Positions 17,869 through 39,414 of a stretch of 53,351 nt of DNA are shown here, one piece after another. Where the stretch lies: the UHGV virus genome UHGV-0304279; one strand, 5' to 3'. Source of the DNA: a virus. The translations under genes were made by a program, and so were the position numbers. The notes beneath the pieces were generated by a model. It ran no database searches and had not been told where the DNA came from. It saw only the letters and a program-made list of their open reading frames with translations. Numbering within the stretch: the first letter of the stretch is position 1; every line of letters begins with the position of its first letter.

Positions 17869-18516
17869 ATGAAAACAAAATGGTATGACTTAGCAAAGCA
17901 GCTCATGCGAGCGCAAGGCATGAGCCAGGATTCACTCGCGGATCTCATGGGGATAACTAAAGGCGGCCTGTCACACTGGCTTAACGGTCGCCGCGAGCCA
18001 AATCTTGAAGATATTGCGCGGATTATGCGGGCACTTGGTCGTCGGCAGTTCACTGTTACCCATGATGGAATGGTCATTGATGATTCTGTTTCTAACACGT
18101 TACCGGGAGCGCCGCAGCGTGATTTAGGCAGTTACCCGGTTGTTGACTGGAAGGACACAGTAAACAATATGGAAGATACAAGGCGATCAACATTACCACA
18201 CGTTACGACTAGCGTTATTTGTTCAGATGATAGTTACTGGCTGGTTGCTAAAGGTGAATCAATGAACGCGCCGCAGGGGTTGAGCATCCCTGCCGGGACG
18301 ATGATACTTGTTGACCCACACGCGCCAGCTATCGATGGAAAGCTGGTTATAGCACAGCTTGAGGAAGGGCAAATACCGACGTTTAAACAGTTGATTATTG
18401 ATGGAGGTCAAAGGCTTTTACGTTCGCTTAACCCGCTGTATCCACCAATCCCCATGAATCCTGAATCGAAAATCATAGGCGTGGTGGTGGACGCGAAGAT
18501 CGTAAACCTGCCATAA
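17869..18516 (+). CDS. CI-like repressor (HTH XRE plus S24 LexA-like peptidase domain)
   Basis: N-terminal HTH (SQDSLADLMGITKGGLSHWLNGRR); C-terminal S24-like segment with GESM and a later Lys; 215 aa. Confidence 0.8.
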   Translation: MKTKWYDLAKQLMRAQGMSQDSLADLMGITKGGLSHWLNGRREPNLEDIARIMRALGRRQFTVTHDGMVIDDSVSNTLPGAPQRDLGSYPVVDWKDTVNNMEDTRRSTLPHVTTSVICSDDSYWLVAKGESMNAPQGLSIPAGTMILVDPHAPAIDGKLVIAQLEEGQIPTFKQLIIDGGQRLLRSLNPLYPPIPMNPESKIIGVVVDAKIVNLP

Positions 18517-27421: not shown

Positions 27422-27587
27422 AGATCTGCAAATAGATATTCAGCGCGCCGAGCGTGATTTAGAGACAGTCAGACAAATCCAGGCTTTTCACATGCGAGAA
27501 TTACTTGCGCTGAAAGAGCTTGAAAGAAAACTGGTGCAATCAATTTCTGATCGTAAACGACTGGCGGCGCGTTACTGGAGCAAATAA
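27405..27587 (+). CDS. hypothetical coiled-coil protein
   Basis: ATG 27405 with RBS GGGGTGA. Confidence 0.4.
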   Translation: MKNEIKDLQIDIQRAERDLETVRQIQAFHMRELLALKELERKLVQSISDRKRLAARYWSK

Positions 27588-28309
27588 TGAATTTAGAATC
27601 AATTCTAAAATTCCACTTTCCCAAATCACCGCGATTATCAGACGAAAGCCGGGGAACATCACCTGACGCACTTAATACTACGGATGCGCTTACCGCCGCT
27701 GGTATGGCGCAATCGCGCGTAGCGCTTGGTTACAGCGCTTTTTTGGGGAAGATGGAGCTATCGCAAGCAGAAAAACACAGGGCCGTAGTTTTGCTTACAG
27801 AGCGTTTAAGAGCTATGGCAAAAGATTACGAATACGTCATGGAACTGGAGGAGAGCCAGCGCAATGATTTTATTATTCTTGTTGCCGTTTTCGCGTTTCG
27901 GGATTATTGCCAAAGCGCCGCGACGGAAAAAACTTGTATGGAGTGCGGCGGATATAAATTTACGTTTGACGAATACGGAGAAAAACACCTTTGCAAAAAA
28001 TGCAAGGGGCACGGGAAAGTTCGCAATCATTGTAAACAATGCAAGGGGCGCGGCGAGATACCGGATAAAACAGCCAGCAATGCGGCAGAAATGCCAGTCT
28101 TCAAAACGTGCCGGCACTGTGGCGGGCGCGGGTACTCGCGTTTCCCGGTAGATCTCGTCCGGCAGGCTGTTAACCAGCTTGTTTTCCCGGTAAGCCGATC
28201 AACATGGTGGAAGAAATACAGGGTTTTCTATGAGGACGCCATAGCGGAGCTATTCAAAGAAGAAGCCCGCGCAGAAAGCGAAATCAAGCGAGTGACACGG
28301 GGTGAATAA
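27587..28309 (+). CDS. putative antitermination protein Q-like / DnaJ-type zinc-finger protein
   Basis: Four CxxCxGxG repeats (CMECGGYK, CKKCKGHG, CKQCKGRG, CRHCGGRG); follows the nin/rusA genes where lambdoid Q lies. Confidence 0.45.
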   Translation: MNLESILKFHFPKSPRLSDESRGTSPDALNTTDALTAAGMAQSRVALGYSAFLGKMELSQAEKHRAVVLLTERLRAMAKDYEYVMELEESQRNDFIILVAVFAFRDYCQSAATEKTCMECGGYKFTFDEYGEKHLCKKCKGHGKVRNHCKQCKGRGEIPDKTASNAAEMPVFKTCRHCGGRGYSRFPVDLVRQAVNQLVFPVSRSTWWKKYRVFYEDAIAELFKEEARAESEIKRVTRGE

Positions 28310-34699: not shown

Positions 34700-34721
34700 C
34701 CCGGCCACGTGCCGGGTTTTT
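34700..34721 (+). terminator. terminator-like hairpin immediately upstream of the lysis cassette (candidate tR'-like element)
   Basis: CCCGGC-cacgt-GCCGGG followed by TTTTT. Confidence 0.55.
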
Positions 34722-34740
34722 GCTTGTTGGAGGTAAATCT

Positions 34741-34941
34741 ATGTTCGACAAAATACGGGAGGCGTGCGCGTATGCAGTAGGGGCCGTAACGGCCTTTTTC
34801 GGTGCGATAACCATCAATGATGTTGCTGTCTTTGTGGGTATCTTATCAACCGCAGGTACATTTGCCGTTAACTATTACTTCAAATCACAGGAGAACAAGC
34901 GAGCGCAAGAGGAACACGACGCGCGAATGGGGAATAAGTAA
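34741..34941 (+). CDS. holin (small, two TM helices; likely pinholin partner of the SAR endolysin)
   Basis: 66 aa with two hydrophobic helices and a charged C-terminus; RBS GGAGGT; directly upstream of the endolysin. Confidence 0.65.
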   Translation: MFDKIREACAYAVGAVTAFFGAITINDVAVFVGILSTAGTFAVNYYFKSQENKRAQEEHDARMGNK

Positions 34942-35433
34942 ATGATTAGCCAATCGCTGAAGAACAAGATTATTGCTGCGGCGGCTGGTGGGGCGATCGC
35001 TATTGCGGCTGTGATGGTTAAACCATTAGAAGGCGTGGAGTACGATCCGTATCGTGATGTTATCGGTGTATGGACTGTATGTTATGGTCATACCGGAAAA
35101 GACATCATGCTTGGTAAGACTTACACGCAATCAGAATGCGATGCTTTGTTAAATAAAGATCTCCACAAAACCGCAAAAGCGATCGACCCCTATATTAAAG
35201 TCGAAATATCAGATTTTACCCGCGCGGCGCTTTATTCATTCGCCTATAACGTAGGCGCTACCAACTTTAAAACATCAACATTATTGAAGCTACTCAATGA
35301 CGGCAAGAAATCGGAAGCGTGCGCACAGCTTAAACGCTGGATCTATGCTGGTGGTAAGCAGTGGCAAGGGTTAATTAACCGTCGTGATATTGAATATGCC
35401 GTTTGCGAATGGGGTGAAACATGGACAAGGTAA
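34942..35433 (+). CDS. SAR endolysin (T4-lysozyme-like, GH24) with N-terminal signal-anchor-release domain
   Basis: Catalytic-region motifs (EG..YDPY.D..G.WT.CYGHTG) preceded by a Gly/Ala-rich weakly hydrophobic N-terminal helix ([18 protein letters not shown]). Confidence 0.8.
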
Positions 35434-36005
35434 AGGCGTTAGTTATTGCCGTTGTTGTTTGCATTATTGCCGGACTAACTGCCGTTACATGTTATTACCA
35501 GGGTGAGGCGGCAAGGTTACAGGAAGAAGTCACGGTGACGCAAGGCGCACTAAAAACAGCAAGTAACACCATTCAGCAGATGAAGGAGCGAAACGCCGAA
35601 CTGTCAAAACTTGATAAGAGGTATCACGATGAGATTAAAGCTATCAGATCTGACATTGCCGATCTGCGCACTGGCATTGATAGCGGCGCTATCAGGTTGC
35701 ACGTCAACGCCGAGCCAGTGCGATTGCTCGACAATACCGGAGCCGCCAGCCGCATTGATGGAGCCACCTGTAGACTCACTCCCGACGCTGAATCGGCTTA
35801 TCTATCCCTCAGAGAACAACTAAAAGAGAAAGACGCGAAGATCACCGGATTGCAGGACTACATCAAAACGCAGTGCTTACGCAAAGAACAACAGCGCGTG
35901 GACGTGTCGCCGTTTCCGCCAGCCAGCCATAACCGGGCCAATCCTTCCCGCGAGCGACGGCGGAATAGTCAAAAACACGTAATGCCGGAACATCCATCCC
36001 ATTAA
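35421..36005 (+). CDS. i-spanin Rz (with unusually long C-terminal extension)
   Basis: N-terminal TM helix followed by coiled coil; contains the embedded Rz1 frame. Confidence 0.65.
35629..35823 (+). CDS. o-spanin Rz1 (lipoprotein, embedded in Rz in the +1 frame)
   Basis: Lipobox LSGC within a signal peptide, Pro-rich mature part; RBS AAGAGG. Confidence 0.65.
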   Translation: MRLKLSDLTLPICALALIAALSGCTSTPSQCDCSTIPEPPAALMEPPVDSLPTLNRLIYPSENN

Positions 36006-36169
36006 CAGGTCCGGCGCTACCTGGGCAGAAGAAAGCGCCATTCTCAAGTTTATAAAATTCTGGAAACGGTACTGATGAAGCGCCGTTCTCAGTGTTTTAT
36101 AGCTGTTTTCACTCCCTGCGGTGTCGAGTTTTGCGGGGGTTATATTTTTCAGGATAGAGGAATATTCTG

Positions 36170-36712
36170 ATGGCTAAGGCTAAAGGCATTAAGTTGCCTC
36201 ACTTCAAGATCCCGCTCTTTGAGCATACCACTGTTTTCTTTTGCCCGACCCGCGAGATGTTCTATGAATTTTGCGAAAAGGCAGGAATTCCAATTGAACC
36301 TGATTTCGAACTGGCAGGCGGCCTGACACTCACTTGCACTGGTGAGAAAGGCGGTAACTTCTACGTGATCGCAGTGTTCGACAATGAGTTAGGAACGCTG
36401 GTGCATGAAGCGGCGCACACTACGTTTCACGTATTAAGTGATGTAGGTGTCGTGGCTACCACGGATCCTACCCATCCGGCGAATGAGACTTACGCTTACA
36501 TGGTAGGCCGTATCTTCGATGTATTTTTCCCTATCCTGACAGAATCAAACGAAGCACAGGTTGCAGAAATGCAGGCAGCAGAAGTCGTCGATCAGGCACT
36601 GGAGCAAACAGAACAGCCGAAGGAAGAAGAAAAACCCGCGAAGAAAGGCAAACGTAAGCCGAAGTCAAAAGAGGCATATGTACCGCGTGTAATGAGCTTT
36701 AAGCGAGGCTGA
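36170..36712 (+). CDS. hypothetical protein with HExxH zinc-metallopeptidase-like motif
   Basis: LVHEAAHTTFH with a downstream Glu (NETYAYM); Lys-rich C-terminal tail. Confidence 0.45.
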   Translation: MAKAKGIKLPHFKIPLFEHTTVFFCPTREMFYEFCEKAGIPIEPDFELAGGLTLTCTGEKGGNFYVIAVFDNELGTLVHEAAHTTFHVLSDVGVVATTDPTHPANETYAYMVGRIFDVFFPILTESNEAQVAEMQAAEVVDQALEQTEQPKEEEKPAKKGKRKPKSKEAYVPRVMSFKRG

Positions 36713-36714
36713 TT

Positions 36715-36810
36715 ATGGATGAATGCATCATCGCCGGATTAATTGGTATTTCTGTATTTCTGGTGAGTTTTATTATTGCCGTGCTGATAACCGTAAAGAG
36801 TAAATTATGA
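36715..36810 (+). CDS. mini-gene 1 of tandem array: hydrophobic peptide (31 aa)
   Basis: MDECIIAGLIGISVFLVSFIIAVLITVKSKL; RBS GAGG. Confidence 0.45.
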   Translation: MDECIIAGLIGISVFLVSFIIAVLITVKSKL

Positions 36811-36881
36811 ACACATACGATCTCATCTGGTTATTGGTGCTCATCGTAGGTATTTGTGTGAACATTTACAGGCTATGGTGA
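36807..36881 (+). CDS. mini-gene 2: hydrophobic peptide (24 aa)
   Basis: MNTYDLIWLLVLIVGICVNIYRLW; ATGA overlap with the upstream stop. Confidence 0.45.
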   Translation: MNTYDLIWLLVLIVGICVNIYRLW

Positions 36882-36885
36882 AAAT

Positions 36886-36960
36886 ATGATTGACCCGCTT
36901 ATTATCCTTTCTGCCTGCGTCGCTGTATGGCTGGCGATCATGATATTCATTGAAAGCTAA
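36886..36960 (+). CDS. mini-gene 3: hydrophobic peptide (24 aa)
   Basis: MIDPLIILSACVAVWLAIMIFIES; RBS GGTGA. Confidence 0.45.
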   Translation: MIDPLIILSACVAVWLAIMIFIES

Positions 36961-36970
36961 AGGCATCAAC

Positions 36971-37045
36971 ATGAATATTTACGATCTCATCTGGTGGTCA
37001 TTGGTCGCCGTCATTATCTATTTCTGGTGGAAGAATGTTGTATAG
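36971..37045 (+). CDS. mini-gene 4: hydrophobic peptide (24 aa)
   Basis: MNIYDLIWWSLVAVIIYFWWKNVV; RBS AAGG. Confidence 0.45.
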   Translation: MNIYDLIWWSLVAVIIYFWWKNVV

Positions 37046-37053
37046 GTGAAAGC

Positions 37054-37134
37054 ATGAACGCATACGAAATGCTATTGCTGGTGGCTGTAGTTGTAGTTAT
37101 TGCCGTGGATGTATACCGGGAGATTAAAAAATGA
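37054..37134 (+). CDS. mini-gene 5: hydrophobic peptide (26 aa)
   Basis: MNAYEMLLLVAVVVVIAVDVYREIKK; RBS GGTGA. Confidence 0.45.
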   Translation: MNAYEMLLLVAVVVVIAVDVYREIKK

Positions 37135-37199
37135 AATGGCTTGATTTCTTTTTCCTGATCGTTGCGATTGTTATTACCATGACTGCGCTAACTCAATAG
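37131..37199 (+). CDS. mini-gene 6: hydrophobic peptide (22 aa)
   Basis: MKWLDFFFLIVAIVITMTALTQ; ATGA overlap. Confidence 0.45.
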   Translation: MKWLDFFFLIVAIVITMTALTQ

Positions 37200-37207
37200 G
37201 TGAGCGA

Positions 37208-37282
37208 ATGAACGCTATTGATATTATGTTGATCGTGTGTACCGTTGCGTTATTTATTGTCGGAGTGATTATCAATGTCTGA
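37208..37282 (+). CDS. mini-gene 7: hydrophobic peptide (24 aa)
   Basis: MNAIDIMLIVCTVALFIVGVIINV; RBS GGTGAG. Confidence 0.45.
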   Translation: MNAIDIMLIVCTVALFIVGVIINV

Positions 37283-37343
37283 CAGCGATTTTTTAATCAT
37301 GGCTACATGCACGTTGTTAGTAGTTATCGTTTTCTTCGCATAA
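37275..37343 (+). CDS. mini-gene 8: hydrophobic peptide (22 aa)
   Basis: MSDSDFLIMATCTLLVVIVFFA; RBS GGAG. Confidence 0.45.
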   Translation: MSDSDFLIMATCTLLVVIVFFA

Positions 37344-37353
37344 AGGTTAAGCA

Positions 37354-37437
37354 ATGAAAGAGCTATTTGACTGGTTGGAAGTATTAACATACTGCGCAAG
37401 TTTTGTTGCTTGCGTATATATCATCAATAAATATTGA
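37354..37437 (+). CDS. mini-gene 9: hydrophobic peptide (27 aa)
   Basis: MKELFDWLEVLTYCASFVACVYIINKY; RBS AAGG. Confidence 0.45.
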   Translation: MKELFDWLEVLTYCASFVACVYIINKY

Positions 37438-37447
37438 GAGGTGAATT

Positions 37448-37933
37448 ATGGCCCGCACTAAAAATGCAAAAGCTGACGACAAAAAGCCAGCCGCTAAAAA
37501 GGTGGGCCGTCCGCATGGTTATACCGAAGAAAAAGCGTTAGAGATCTGCGAACTGGTAGCGGACGGTCAGAGCGTTAATAAAATATCGAAAATGCCCGGT
37601 ATGCCTACCCGCACCACGATCTTAAAATGGTTTCGTGATGTGCCTGAATTTTCTGTCATGTACGCGCGCGCGAAAGAAATCGGCTTTGAGGTATTGGCTG
37701 ATGAAATCATCGACATAGCTGATGATGCTAAAAACGCTGATAAAGACCAATTGCGCCGACACCAACTGATGATTGAAACCCGCAAGTGGCTACTGGCAAA
37801 ACTCCAGCCGCGCAAATACGGCGAACGCGTTACACAGGAGATTGTAGGTAACAAGGAAGAAGCACCAGTACAGGTTGCAGTCACAAAAGAGGAGATTGCT
37901 CGCATCGTCCAGGAAGTAGAAGACGAGGTGTGA
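37448..37933 (+). CDS. terminase small subunit
   Basis: HTH-containing N-terminus (GRPHGYTEEKALEICELVADGQSVNKI), position directly upstream of the large terminase; RBS GAGAGGTG. Confidence 0.75.
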   Translation: MARTKNAKADDKKPAAKKVGRPHGYTEEKALEICELVADGQSVNKISKMPGMPTRTTILKWFRDVPEFSVMYARAKEIGFEVLADEIIDIADDAKNADKDQLRRHQLMIETRKWLLAKLQPRKYGERVTQEIVGNKEEAPVQVAVTKEEIARIVQEVEDEV

Positions 37934-37935
37934 TT

Positions 37936-39414
37936 ATGTTGTCAATCAAAGAAAGGGTTATTCAATCCAAATGCGAAAACGATGGCCTGTTCTTCAACCG
38001 TTATTTCTATAAGCAGGCAAACGGCACGAAGATGCTGATATCGGGCCATCACATAGCCATACGCGATGCGCTACAACGCGTTATCAATGGTGAGATTACC
38101 CGCCTCATCATTAACATTCCCCCAGGGTACGGTAAAACCATGATCGCAACCATCAACATGATGGCCCGGTCCCTCGCAATAAATCCCCGCACACGCTTCC
38201 TTCATGTTTCCTATTCCGACAATCTTGCGTTACTCAATTCCTCGACAGTCAGAAGCATGGTTTGTTCGCAGGAATACCAGAAGCTATGGCCCATGAAGAT
38301 CCGCAACGATGCCAACTCTAAATCAATGTGGTGGACGGAACAGGGCGGCGGGATATATGCCGCGTCGTCACACGGTCAGATTACGGGTTTTCGTGCTGGT
38401 TACATGGAGCCGGGCTTCAACGGCGCGATGATTATCGACGACCCATTAAAGCCCGCTGACGCTTACTCTGATGTGATGCGGGATAAGGTAAAGAACAACT
38501 ACAACGACACGCTTGCTTCACGTCTGGCAGTGCAAACAACGCCAGTGATCGTCATTATGCAGCGTATCCACTACGATGATTTGTCCGGCTATCTGCTACG
38601 CGGTGGCAGTGGTGAGAAATGGTATCACCTTAACCTGCCAGTGAAGATTGATAACAGCATCGACTATTGGGATCTGTACCCGGAAAACGAATTCGCTATC
38701 CCTATTGCTCACAACCTGCCGGACGGCTGGCTATGGCCTAAGAAGCACAATGACAGCCATGAAGCTGGACTAAAGGCACACCGCAGGTCATTTGAAGCCC
38801 AATATATGCAGCGCCCGCGTAAATTCGACGAAGAAGGCGCATTGTGGACGGAAGCGATGATTACCGCCGCGCACCGGATGCAGATAACTCAGGATAAGGT
38901 CCGCACGGTAATAGCCATCGACCCGGCGACAACATCATCTGATGAATCTGACGAAACCGGGATCATGGCATGTTCCGCTTATGGTGGCGGCAAGTACGCA
39001 CAGTATTCAGTAGATGGTGACTACTCAGGCCGAATGTCTCCTAACGATTGGGCGCAAGCCTCAATTAACGCTTACAACATCCATGAAGCTGACGCGATAG
39101 TTATCGAAACCAACCAGGGCGGCGAAATGGCAGAGGCCACGTTGCGTAATGCCGGATTCAAAGGCCGCATTGTTAAGGTGCACGCAAGCAAAGGTAAATT
39201 CGCCCGCGCCGAGCCAATATCGGCACTGTATGCACAGGGAAGAGTAGCCCACACTGGCAGCCTGTACACGCTGGAAAATCAAATGATGGAATACGTGCCA
39301 GCTACCGCTAAAAAATCACCTGACCGCCTCGACGCGATGGTATGGGGTATCACTGAATTAAGCCAGCCACAGGCTGTGGGCCTCATGTTACCTAAGCGCC
39401 TGCGCGGATTTTAA
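37936..39414 (+). CDS. terminase large subunit
   Basis: Walker A-like PPGYGKT, ATPase plus RNaseH-like nuclease architecture; size and position. Confidence 0.85.
   Translation: MLSIKERVIQSKCENDGLFFNRYFYKQANGTKMLISGHHIAIRDALQRVINGEITRLIINIPPGYGKTMIATINMMARSLAINPRTRFLHVSYSDNLALLNSSTVRSMVCSQEYQKLWPMKIRNDANSKSMWWTEQGGGIYAASSHGQITGFRAGYMEPGFNGAMIIDDPLKPADAYSDVMRDKVKNNYNDTLASRLAVQTTPVIVIMQRIHYDDLSGYLLRGGSGEKWYHLNLPVKIDNSIDYWDLYPENEFAIPIAHNLPDGWLWPKKHNDSHEAGLKAHRRSFEAQYMQRPRKFDEEGALWTEAMITAAHRMQITQDKVRTVIAIDPATTSSDESDETGIMACSAYGGGKYAQYSVDGDYSGRMSPNDWAQASINAYNIHEADAIVIETNQGGEMAEATLRNAGFKGRIVKVHASKGKFARAEPISALYAQGRVAHTGSLYTLENQMMEYVPATAKKSPDRLDAMVWGITELSQPQAVGLMLPKRLRGF

Follow-up and report, generated by a model that had tools for sequence, protein, structure and literature searches.

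Among the metallopeptidases described on mobile elements, those with the most bearing on the gene considered here belong to the MPTase-PolyVal family (PF18818), for which the ArdC protein of plasmid R388 serves as the example (Iyer et al., 2017, PMC5512222; Gonzalez-Montes et al., 2020, PMC7213743). ArdC places its glutamate ligand 24 residues beyond the second histidine of its HExxH motif, H205 to E229 (PMC7213743). Two other groups also deserve comparison, namely the SprT-like, Spartan and Wss1 proteins (PF10263), which are small HExxH zincin domains with basic DNA-binding regions, and the ImmA/IrrE proteins (PF06114), which combine small size, HExxH and a downstream Glu and are likewise found on mobile elements. 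The minigluzincins (selecase, proabylysin and projannalysin) are soluble archaeal gluzincins of about 110 amino acids (aa) with HExxH and a glutamate helix, in a different third-ligand arrangement. Against this background we analyzed UHGV-0304279, a viral sequence of 53,351 nucleotides (nt), the whole of which is called the window and to which all coordinates refer. Judged by its sequence, the window is essentially the whole genome of a temperate coliphage, one of the mEpimmI group (Negrete-Mendez et al., 2025, PMC11893012). It encodes, just behind its lysis genes, a 180-aa protein with an HExxH motif, which we read, with slightly better than even confidence, as a late-expressed, cytoplasmic and minimal gluzincin-type metallopeptidase of the uncharacterised family PHROG 1365.

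The gene is real and under strong purifying selection. Its open reading frame (ORF) starts with ATG and ends with the stop codon at 36710-36712, and the ratio of nonsynonymous to synonymous substitution rates (dN/dS), calculated against mEp021 and Escherichia phage MagusPhagus, is 0.045-0.05 in the domain and 0.05-0.11 in the C-terminal tail, so that the gene is clearly functional. An earlier note on this DNA had described a 180-aa protein carrying LVHEAAHTTFH, with a candidate third-ligand Glu about 25 residues further on, a Lys-rich C-terminal tail and a position immediately 5' of an array of mini-genes, and the plus-strand ORF bears this description out: LVHEAAHTTFH occupies residues 77-87, Glu106 (36485-36487) lies 23 residues past His83, the Lys/Arg-rich segment KPAKKGKRKPKSK is found at residues 152-164, and the ATG of the first mini-ORF (36715) follows the stop after 2 nt. 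Neither a signal peptide nor a hydrophobic segment is visible in the protein sequence on reading by eye. The motif alone says little, as about 0.42 HExxH are expected by chance among the six-frame ORFs of at least 60 aa in the window and one was seen; a lone HExxH is not significant at this genome size, and it is the conservation in the family that exceeds chance. Immediately upstream, a 31-aa ORF (36075-36170), which is a hypothetical coding sequence (CDS) in MagusPhagus, ends in a TGA that overlaps the ATG of the gene (TGATG); it could be translationally coupled or spurious.

Residues 1-132 match positions 3-125 of the 127 positions of phrog_1365 in PHROGs (E 1.4e-29), where the family is labelled 'unknown function'. 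When 1.84 billion representative sequences (50% identity) were scanned by HMMER with the domain profile, 237 proteins were recovered; almost all of them are standalone and 110-140 aa long, mostly about 120 aa. Standalone proteins of 67-189 aa made up 145 of the 146 representatives that were examined, and HExxH is present in 143 of these 146, the three exceptions appearing frameshifted or mutated; two matches to giant proteins involved only the N-terminal 16-22 residues, repeatedly. Closer to the window protein, hypothetical proteins of 92-96% identity occur in mEpimmI phages and Escherichia coli prophages, and the close homologues as a whole (61-96% identity) are E. coli prophage proteins that are named hypothetical with the exception of P0118 (61% identical), for which a public metagenome annotation gives 'PolyVal Metallopeptidase superfamily domain'. 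Repeating the homologue search from the distant alignment yielded, for the most part, the close E. coli proteins already found, and by megablast the gene is present in 28 of 5,426 complete E. coli genomes.

Conservation was counted over 71 diverse members, aligned with a mean column identity of 19%. Four residues, G51, H79, E80 and H83, are invariant (71/71), and E106 is found in 70 members, Y110 in 69, T76 and G93 in 64 each and N105 in 51, with Cys, Ala or Thr at position 109. Since His87 occurs in only 7 of the 71 and His102 is likewise not conserved, Glu106 is the sole credible third ligand. Between the second His and this Glu, most members have a spacing of 19-20 residues, compared with 23 in the window protein, and the conserved residues recur at i, i+3/4 on both helices (T76, H79/E80, H83 and F86 on one, E106 and Y110 on the other). 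Cysteines are common beside the catalytic residues (HECxH in 17/71, NETFC in 46/71), and for much of the family they may be a pair with a redox or metal-related role; the corresponding residues of the window protein, 81 and 109, are both Ala.

An AlphaFold2 model of the domain built from the 71 sequences reached a mean predicted local distance difference test score (pLDDT) of 93.4 and a predicted template modelling score (pTM) of 0.86, compared with a pLDDT of 71 for a model from a shallow alignment. The predicted elements are strands at 11-13 and 21-25, helices at 28-38 and 44-48, strands at 51-57 and 63-69, and helices at 74-91 and 103-134. HEAAH (79-83) falls within the predicted helix 74-91, so that HExxH is located on an alpha-helix as is characteristic of the zincin superfamily, and the order in the model, i.e., strand, helix, strand, strand, HExxH helix and Glu helix, resembles the one described for the zincin core (PMC5512222). 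The glutamate-helix motif of gluzincins is (E,H)xx(A,F,T,S,G) (PMC7213743), and E106-T-Y-A conforms to it as far as sequence and predicted secondary structure show.

For the comparison with MPTase-PolyVal, ArdC of R388 was taken as the PF18818 source because Pfam detected no MPTase domain in P1 DdrB; its residues 152-275 match PF18818 at E 1e-48, and from 120 homologues collected, 89 domains were aligned. The hhalign comparison of PHROG 1365 with this 89-sequence alignment gave a probability of 75% and a P value of 2.5e-5. After masking of the H/E/H columns the P value was 0.005, compared with 0.06 for the best of 20 column shuffles, and hhalign against the single P1 DdrB sequence gave a motif-only or unrelated match. 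These profile comparisons are suggestive of remote homology to the ArdC MPTase-PolyVal domain, short of proof. In ArdC and, by prediction, in the window protein TL(A/V)HE(A)xH is preceded by a beta-hairpin and a backing helix and the second His is followed by a Glu ligand after 23-24 residues; in both, the domain comprises about 125 residues and the gene is carried by mobile elements; the association of ArdC with nucleic acid is moreover echoed by the basic tail of the window protein. There are, however, clear differences, in that PHROG 1365 proteins are standalone, with neither an ArdC-N fusion nor a place in a polyvalent multidomain protein, and lack the approximately 25-residue insert between the two helices of ArdC, and that the window gene belongs to a late operon whereas ArdC is encoded by a leading-region gene.

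We favor the zincin-type reading because of the invariant HExxH and Glu, the predicted order of strands and helices, and the ArdC profile match, and from these we infer metal binding and peptidase activity. A number of results weigh against it. The ArdC match spans just 26 columns (one strand and the motif), and PF18818 was absent from the Pfam output for every family member scanned. No member of PHROG 1365 reaches a Pfam, NCBIfam or PADLOC threshold, and NCBIfam gave weak, motif-level matches only among the 71 members, including 'WD_0702 putative metalloprotease' in two and M3 peptidases in two. Sequence searches of the PDB with two profiles returned chance-level matches only, Foldseek with the poorer model returned nothing, and no solved zincin structure was matched significantly by the confident model. 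No minigluzincin was among the listed matches of the PDB sequence or structure searches, although these proteins share with PHROG 1365 the form of a standalone catalytic domain of about 110-120 residues. Literature searches for hkcC and orf129, the homologues in phages HK620 and ST64T, yielded only 'unknown' annotations, and no experimental work on any member of PHROG 1365 was found. The conserved zincin site of ArdC, furthermore, is not needed for the known phenotype of that protein (PMC7213743), and a basic tail, on which part of our mechanism depends, is present in too few members for a DNA tether to explain the whole family. The general suggestion of the earlier note, a zincin-type peptidase, is the best-supported reading, in view of the HExxH/Glu signature, the predicted secondary-structure order and the suggestive profile match to ArdC; the profile and structure searches provided neither a family match at threshold nor a significant solved structure.

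If the favored reading is right, a divalent metal, probably Zn2+, would be bound by His79 and His83 of the active-site helix together with Glu106 of the helix that follows, and Glu80 would activate the catalytic water. The small beta-sheet that just precedes the HExxH helix (strands 51-57 and 63-69) would receive the substrate chain along its edge. The gene would be transcribed with the late operon, and the likeliest targets would be a host or phage protein that is removed or processed around packaging and lysis, or a host defence protein.

The C-terminal tail is a clade-specific extension. It consists of an acidic, Gln-rich continuation of the last helix, the Lys/Arg-rich segment mentioned above and a conserved end, EAYVPRVMSFKRG, and in the full-length model its pLDDT is below 50 at 149-154, 156-163 and 165-180. 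The motif E-x-(Y/L)-V-P-R-(V/I)-x-x-(F/Y)-K-R-G at its end is retained in a 53%-identical relative, and another type of Lys-rich tail is seen in some E. coli prophages. A basic tail was considered as a family-wide feature and rejected, as just 17 of 144 members carry a net basic one; the family core is acidic. By analogy with ArdC, Spartan and IrrE, zincins that associate with DNA, we infer that the disordered Lys/Arg-rich tail of the mEpimmI clade may anchor the enzyme on nucleic acid or on an acidic partner, an anchor of this kind having been acquired in some lineages.

The setting of the gene points to a late function. The nearest relatives of the window are MagusPhagus (91% DNA identity over the region) and mEp010, mEp013, mEp021, mEp044, mEp515 and mEp554. 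The order Q-like antiterminator, holin, endolysin, Rz, HExxH gene, small terminase and large terminase (Table 1) assigns the HExxH gene to the late operon, and a portal and a MuF-like protein (Pfam) are encoded 3' of the large terminase. The counterpart in mEp021 is mEp021_49, annotated as 'hypothetical protein'; the GenBank record of that phage labels virion proteins as such (e.g., mEp021_41), and gene 49 is without this label. Sixteen structural proteins were detected by mass spectrometry in the mEpimmI study, which together with its supplements contains no mention of the HExxH gene (PMC11893012).

Table 1. Coordinates of the HExxH gene, its parts and the neighbouring features in the window.
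Feature	Position	Strand	Basis or remark
CI-like repressor	17869-18516		Pfam HTH_3 + Peptidase_S24; 17.6 kb from the HExxH gene
Q-type antiterminator	27587-28309		Pfam
Holin	34720-34941		Pfam Phage_holin_2_3
Endolysin	34942-35433		Pfam Phage_lysozyme
Rz-type spanin, last gene of the lysis cassette	35421-36005	+	Pfam Phage_lysis
Shine-Dalgarno GAGGA	36157-36161	+	8 nt upstream of the ATG, read from the sequence
Gene of the 180-aa HExxH protein	36170-36712	+	ORF list; mEp021_49 orthologue; PHROG 1365 member
Conserved standalone domain, residues 1-135	36170-36574	+	Representative search, AlphaFold2 model
HEAAH (His79, Glu80, His83), residues 79-83	36404-36418	+	Predicted active-site helix, with predicted metal ligands and general base
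N105-E106-T-Y-A-Y110	36482-36499	+	Predicted glutamate-helix motif, at the start of predicted helix 103-134
Clade-specific extension, residues 136-180	36575-36709	+	pLDDT, selection, relatives
Mini-gene array, between the HExxH gene and the small terminase gene	36715-37440		ORF list
Sf6-type small terminase	37448-37933	+	Pfam Sf6_terminase
Large terminase	37930-39414		Pfam Terminase_6C

Other phages were surveyed by tblastn against GenBank phages and by retrieval of IMG/VR loci with a 12-member subset of the alignment. All seven mEpimmI-type GenBank records contain the gene, and homologues of 34-45% identity are found in 74 further phage records, nearly all of them P22-like. The ST64T homologue, orf129 (ST64Tp49), is located in the order Rz, DUF2560 protein, orf129, Dec and small terminase, and the HK620 homologue, hkcC, just after the ejection gene 16. 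P22 itself (NC_002371, 13861-14226, plus strand; locus L005, 3001-3366) has an intact 121-aa ORF identical to HkcC at which no CDS is annotated; the span of this ORF overlaps with the sieA promoter, which is annotated on the other strand. Within the orf129 clade in IMG/VR, a terminase gene is encoded at most six ORFs downstream, usually one to three, in 71 of 77 loci, with lysis genes upstream, and this proximity holds across four small-terminase and three large-terminase clusters.

The distant members have more varied neighbours. Those in L020 and L021 are found a few kb or less upstream of a terminase, beside Tad2-like (L020, 4729-5004) or Sequestin (L021, 147-749) genes, and those in L012, L015 and L020 stand at the end of operons that also encode two ParB_N proteins and an AAA/nSTAND-like ATPase, while the member in L016 is part of an accessory region with Bro-N, Rha and ParE genes. 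The Tad2-like, Sequestin and ParB_N surroundings are hints that these neighbourhoods have an accessory or counter-defence character. A search for a partner gene shared between lineages found none, and neighbour conservation is seen only within clades. PF18894 (PhageMetallopep) provides a parallel, as another HExxH protein encoded just upstream of a small terminase, of the DUF2280 type, but it is of about 212 aa and shows no profile similarity to PHROG 1365 (hhalign probability 1.7%). A PF18894 protein is encoded immediately downstream of the PHROG 1365 member in 12 IMG/VR loci (position +1, e.g., L028 and L046) and about 2.7 kb further downstream in L023 (8122-8775) and L024 (7177-7830), so that two predicted metallopeptidases precede the terminase in those phages.

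Neither of the two families that the earlier note had offered as examples is supported by these results. An ImmA/IrrE-type (M78) protease would act as an anti-repressor by cleaving the CI-like repressor of the phage at induction. The HExxH followed by a Glu some 23 residues on is indeed arranged as in IrrE, and P0118 gave one weak Peptidase_M78 match (E 0.099), but this match scored 12.9 bits against a cut-off of 22, covered the motif only and came from one of three proteins scanned individually; M78 was also not among the 25 families listed of the 40 Pfam families matched by the 71 members. ImmA genes normally adjoin an ImmR-type repressor gene, whereas the window gene is located between Rz and the small terminase gene, 17.6 kb from a repressor with a Peptidase_S24 domain of its own, and the P22-like homologues are late-operon genes as well. 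The repressor is expected from its domains to self-cleave in the manner of LexA, and this contrasts with the report that most mEpimmI phages are not inducible by ultraviolet light (PMC11893012). We consider an anti-repressor of this type barely credible. Membership of the SprT/Spartan-type DNA-dependent proteases is very improbable too, if a shade less so. The basic tail of the mEpimmI clade resembles the DNA-binding regions of those proteins and weak SprT-like Pfam matches were obtained for 17 of the 71 members (best E 4e-4), all of them below threshold, yet the match that was inspected covers only residues 73-90, i.e., 18 residues around HExxH, at 12.2 bits compared with the required 25.6, and hhalign against E. 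coli SprT aligned an unrelated segment with a probability of 4.7%. The third ligand of Spartan, moreover, is a His (PMC7213743), whereas the conserved residue here is Glu106.

Two further explanations concern the partners and the chemistry of the protein. The earlier note had suggested a functional link to the mini-gene array, and the product might thus be a leader peptidase, or a peptide hydroxylase of the alpha-ketoglutarate (aKG) HExxH type as in systems for ribosomally synthesised and post-translationally modified peptides (RiPPs), that processes or modifies the mini-gene products. The 2-nt gap and the shared operon would agree with this, as would weak matches of 8 of the 71 members to TIGR04267 (aKG-HExxH peptide beta-hydroxylase; best E 0.015); these matches, however, reach about 15 bits where 40 are required, and none comes from the window protein. 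The array is found in the window, MagusPhagus and the P0118 contig, whereas L013 and L014 carry a 53%-identical orthologue in the same Q-lysis-terminase architecture that ends 3 nt before the small terminase gene, without an array, and P22-like, HK620, ParB-operon and other distant members have no such array either. The array thus appears to be a later insertion between the HExxH gene and the small terminase gene in one subclade, and the family is older and broader than the array and not dependent on it, which leaves a role in processing its products highly unlikely. A more serious competitor, albeit one to which we give a clearly minor chance, is a metal-binding or purely structural protein in which HExxH is not a peptidase site and which might bind or inhibit a host protein or hydrolyse something other than protein. 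The lack of a solved zincin structure matching the confident model, the dispensable metal site of ArdC and the sponge-type anti-defence genes (Tad2-like and Sequestin) next to some members are all in keeping with it. Nevertheless, the general base Glu80 in every member and the nearly invariant stripe of Glu106 and Tyr110 form the pattern of a catalytic site rather than of a fold remnant.

It can be speculated further, as a long shot, that PHROG 1365 comprises undescribed minimal (about 120 aa) phage gluzincins with a fixed place at the lysis/packaging junction in many temperate phages of enterobacteria, tethered to nucleic acid in mEpimmI phages. Their task, late in infection, would be to remove or process a protein that is bound to DNA or serves defence, which would allow concatemers to be packaged or host immunity to be disarmed. 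If true, they would represent a class of late effector protease new to phages, and if the prediction of a metallopeptidase holds, they would be among the smallest metallopeptidase families known. The gene is conserved, as 'hypothetical' or unannotated, in model phages (the P22, HK620, L and ST64T group) as well as in gut-prevalent mEpimmI coliphages, and its place, constant between lysis and terminase genes across the terminase types, suggests a role late in infection. Given that mEp021 and P22 are genetically tractable, the hypothesis is directly testable. We contend that the finding is a modest upgrade of annotation with a testable hypothesis and not a striking anomaly.

Several minor observations concern the genes on either side. 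Some nine mini-ORFs, each coding for 22-31 aa that include a hydrophobic core, follow one another in the array, which is also present in locus L003; a ribosome-binding site resembling GGTGA precedes several of them, and several are clear paralogues (MN-YDLIW...). On the other side, the Rz ORF encodes 194 aa, whereas its relatives end after ...TQCLRKE at 156-161 aa; CAA is found at 35890-35892, where the shorter relatives suggest a stop, which results in a C-terminal extension of 37 aa. An Rz1-type lipoprotein ORF with an LSGC lipobox is nested within Rz at 35611-35823.
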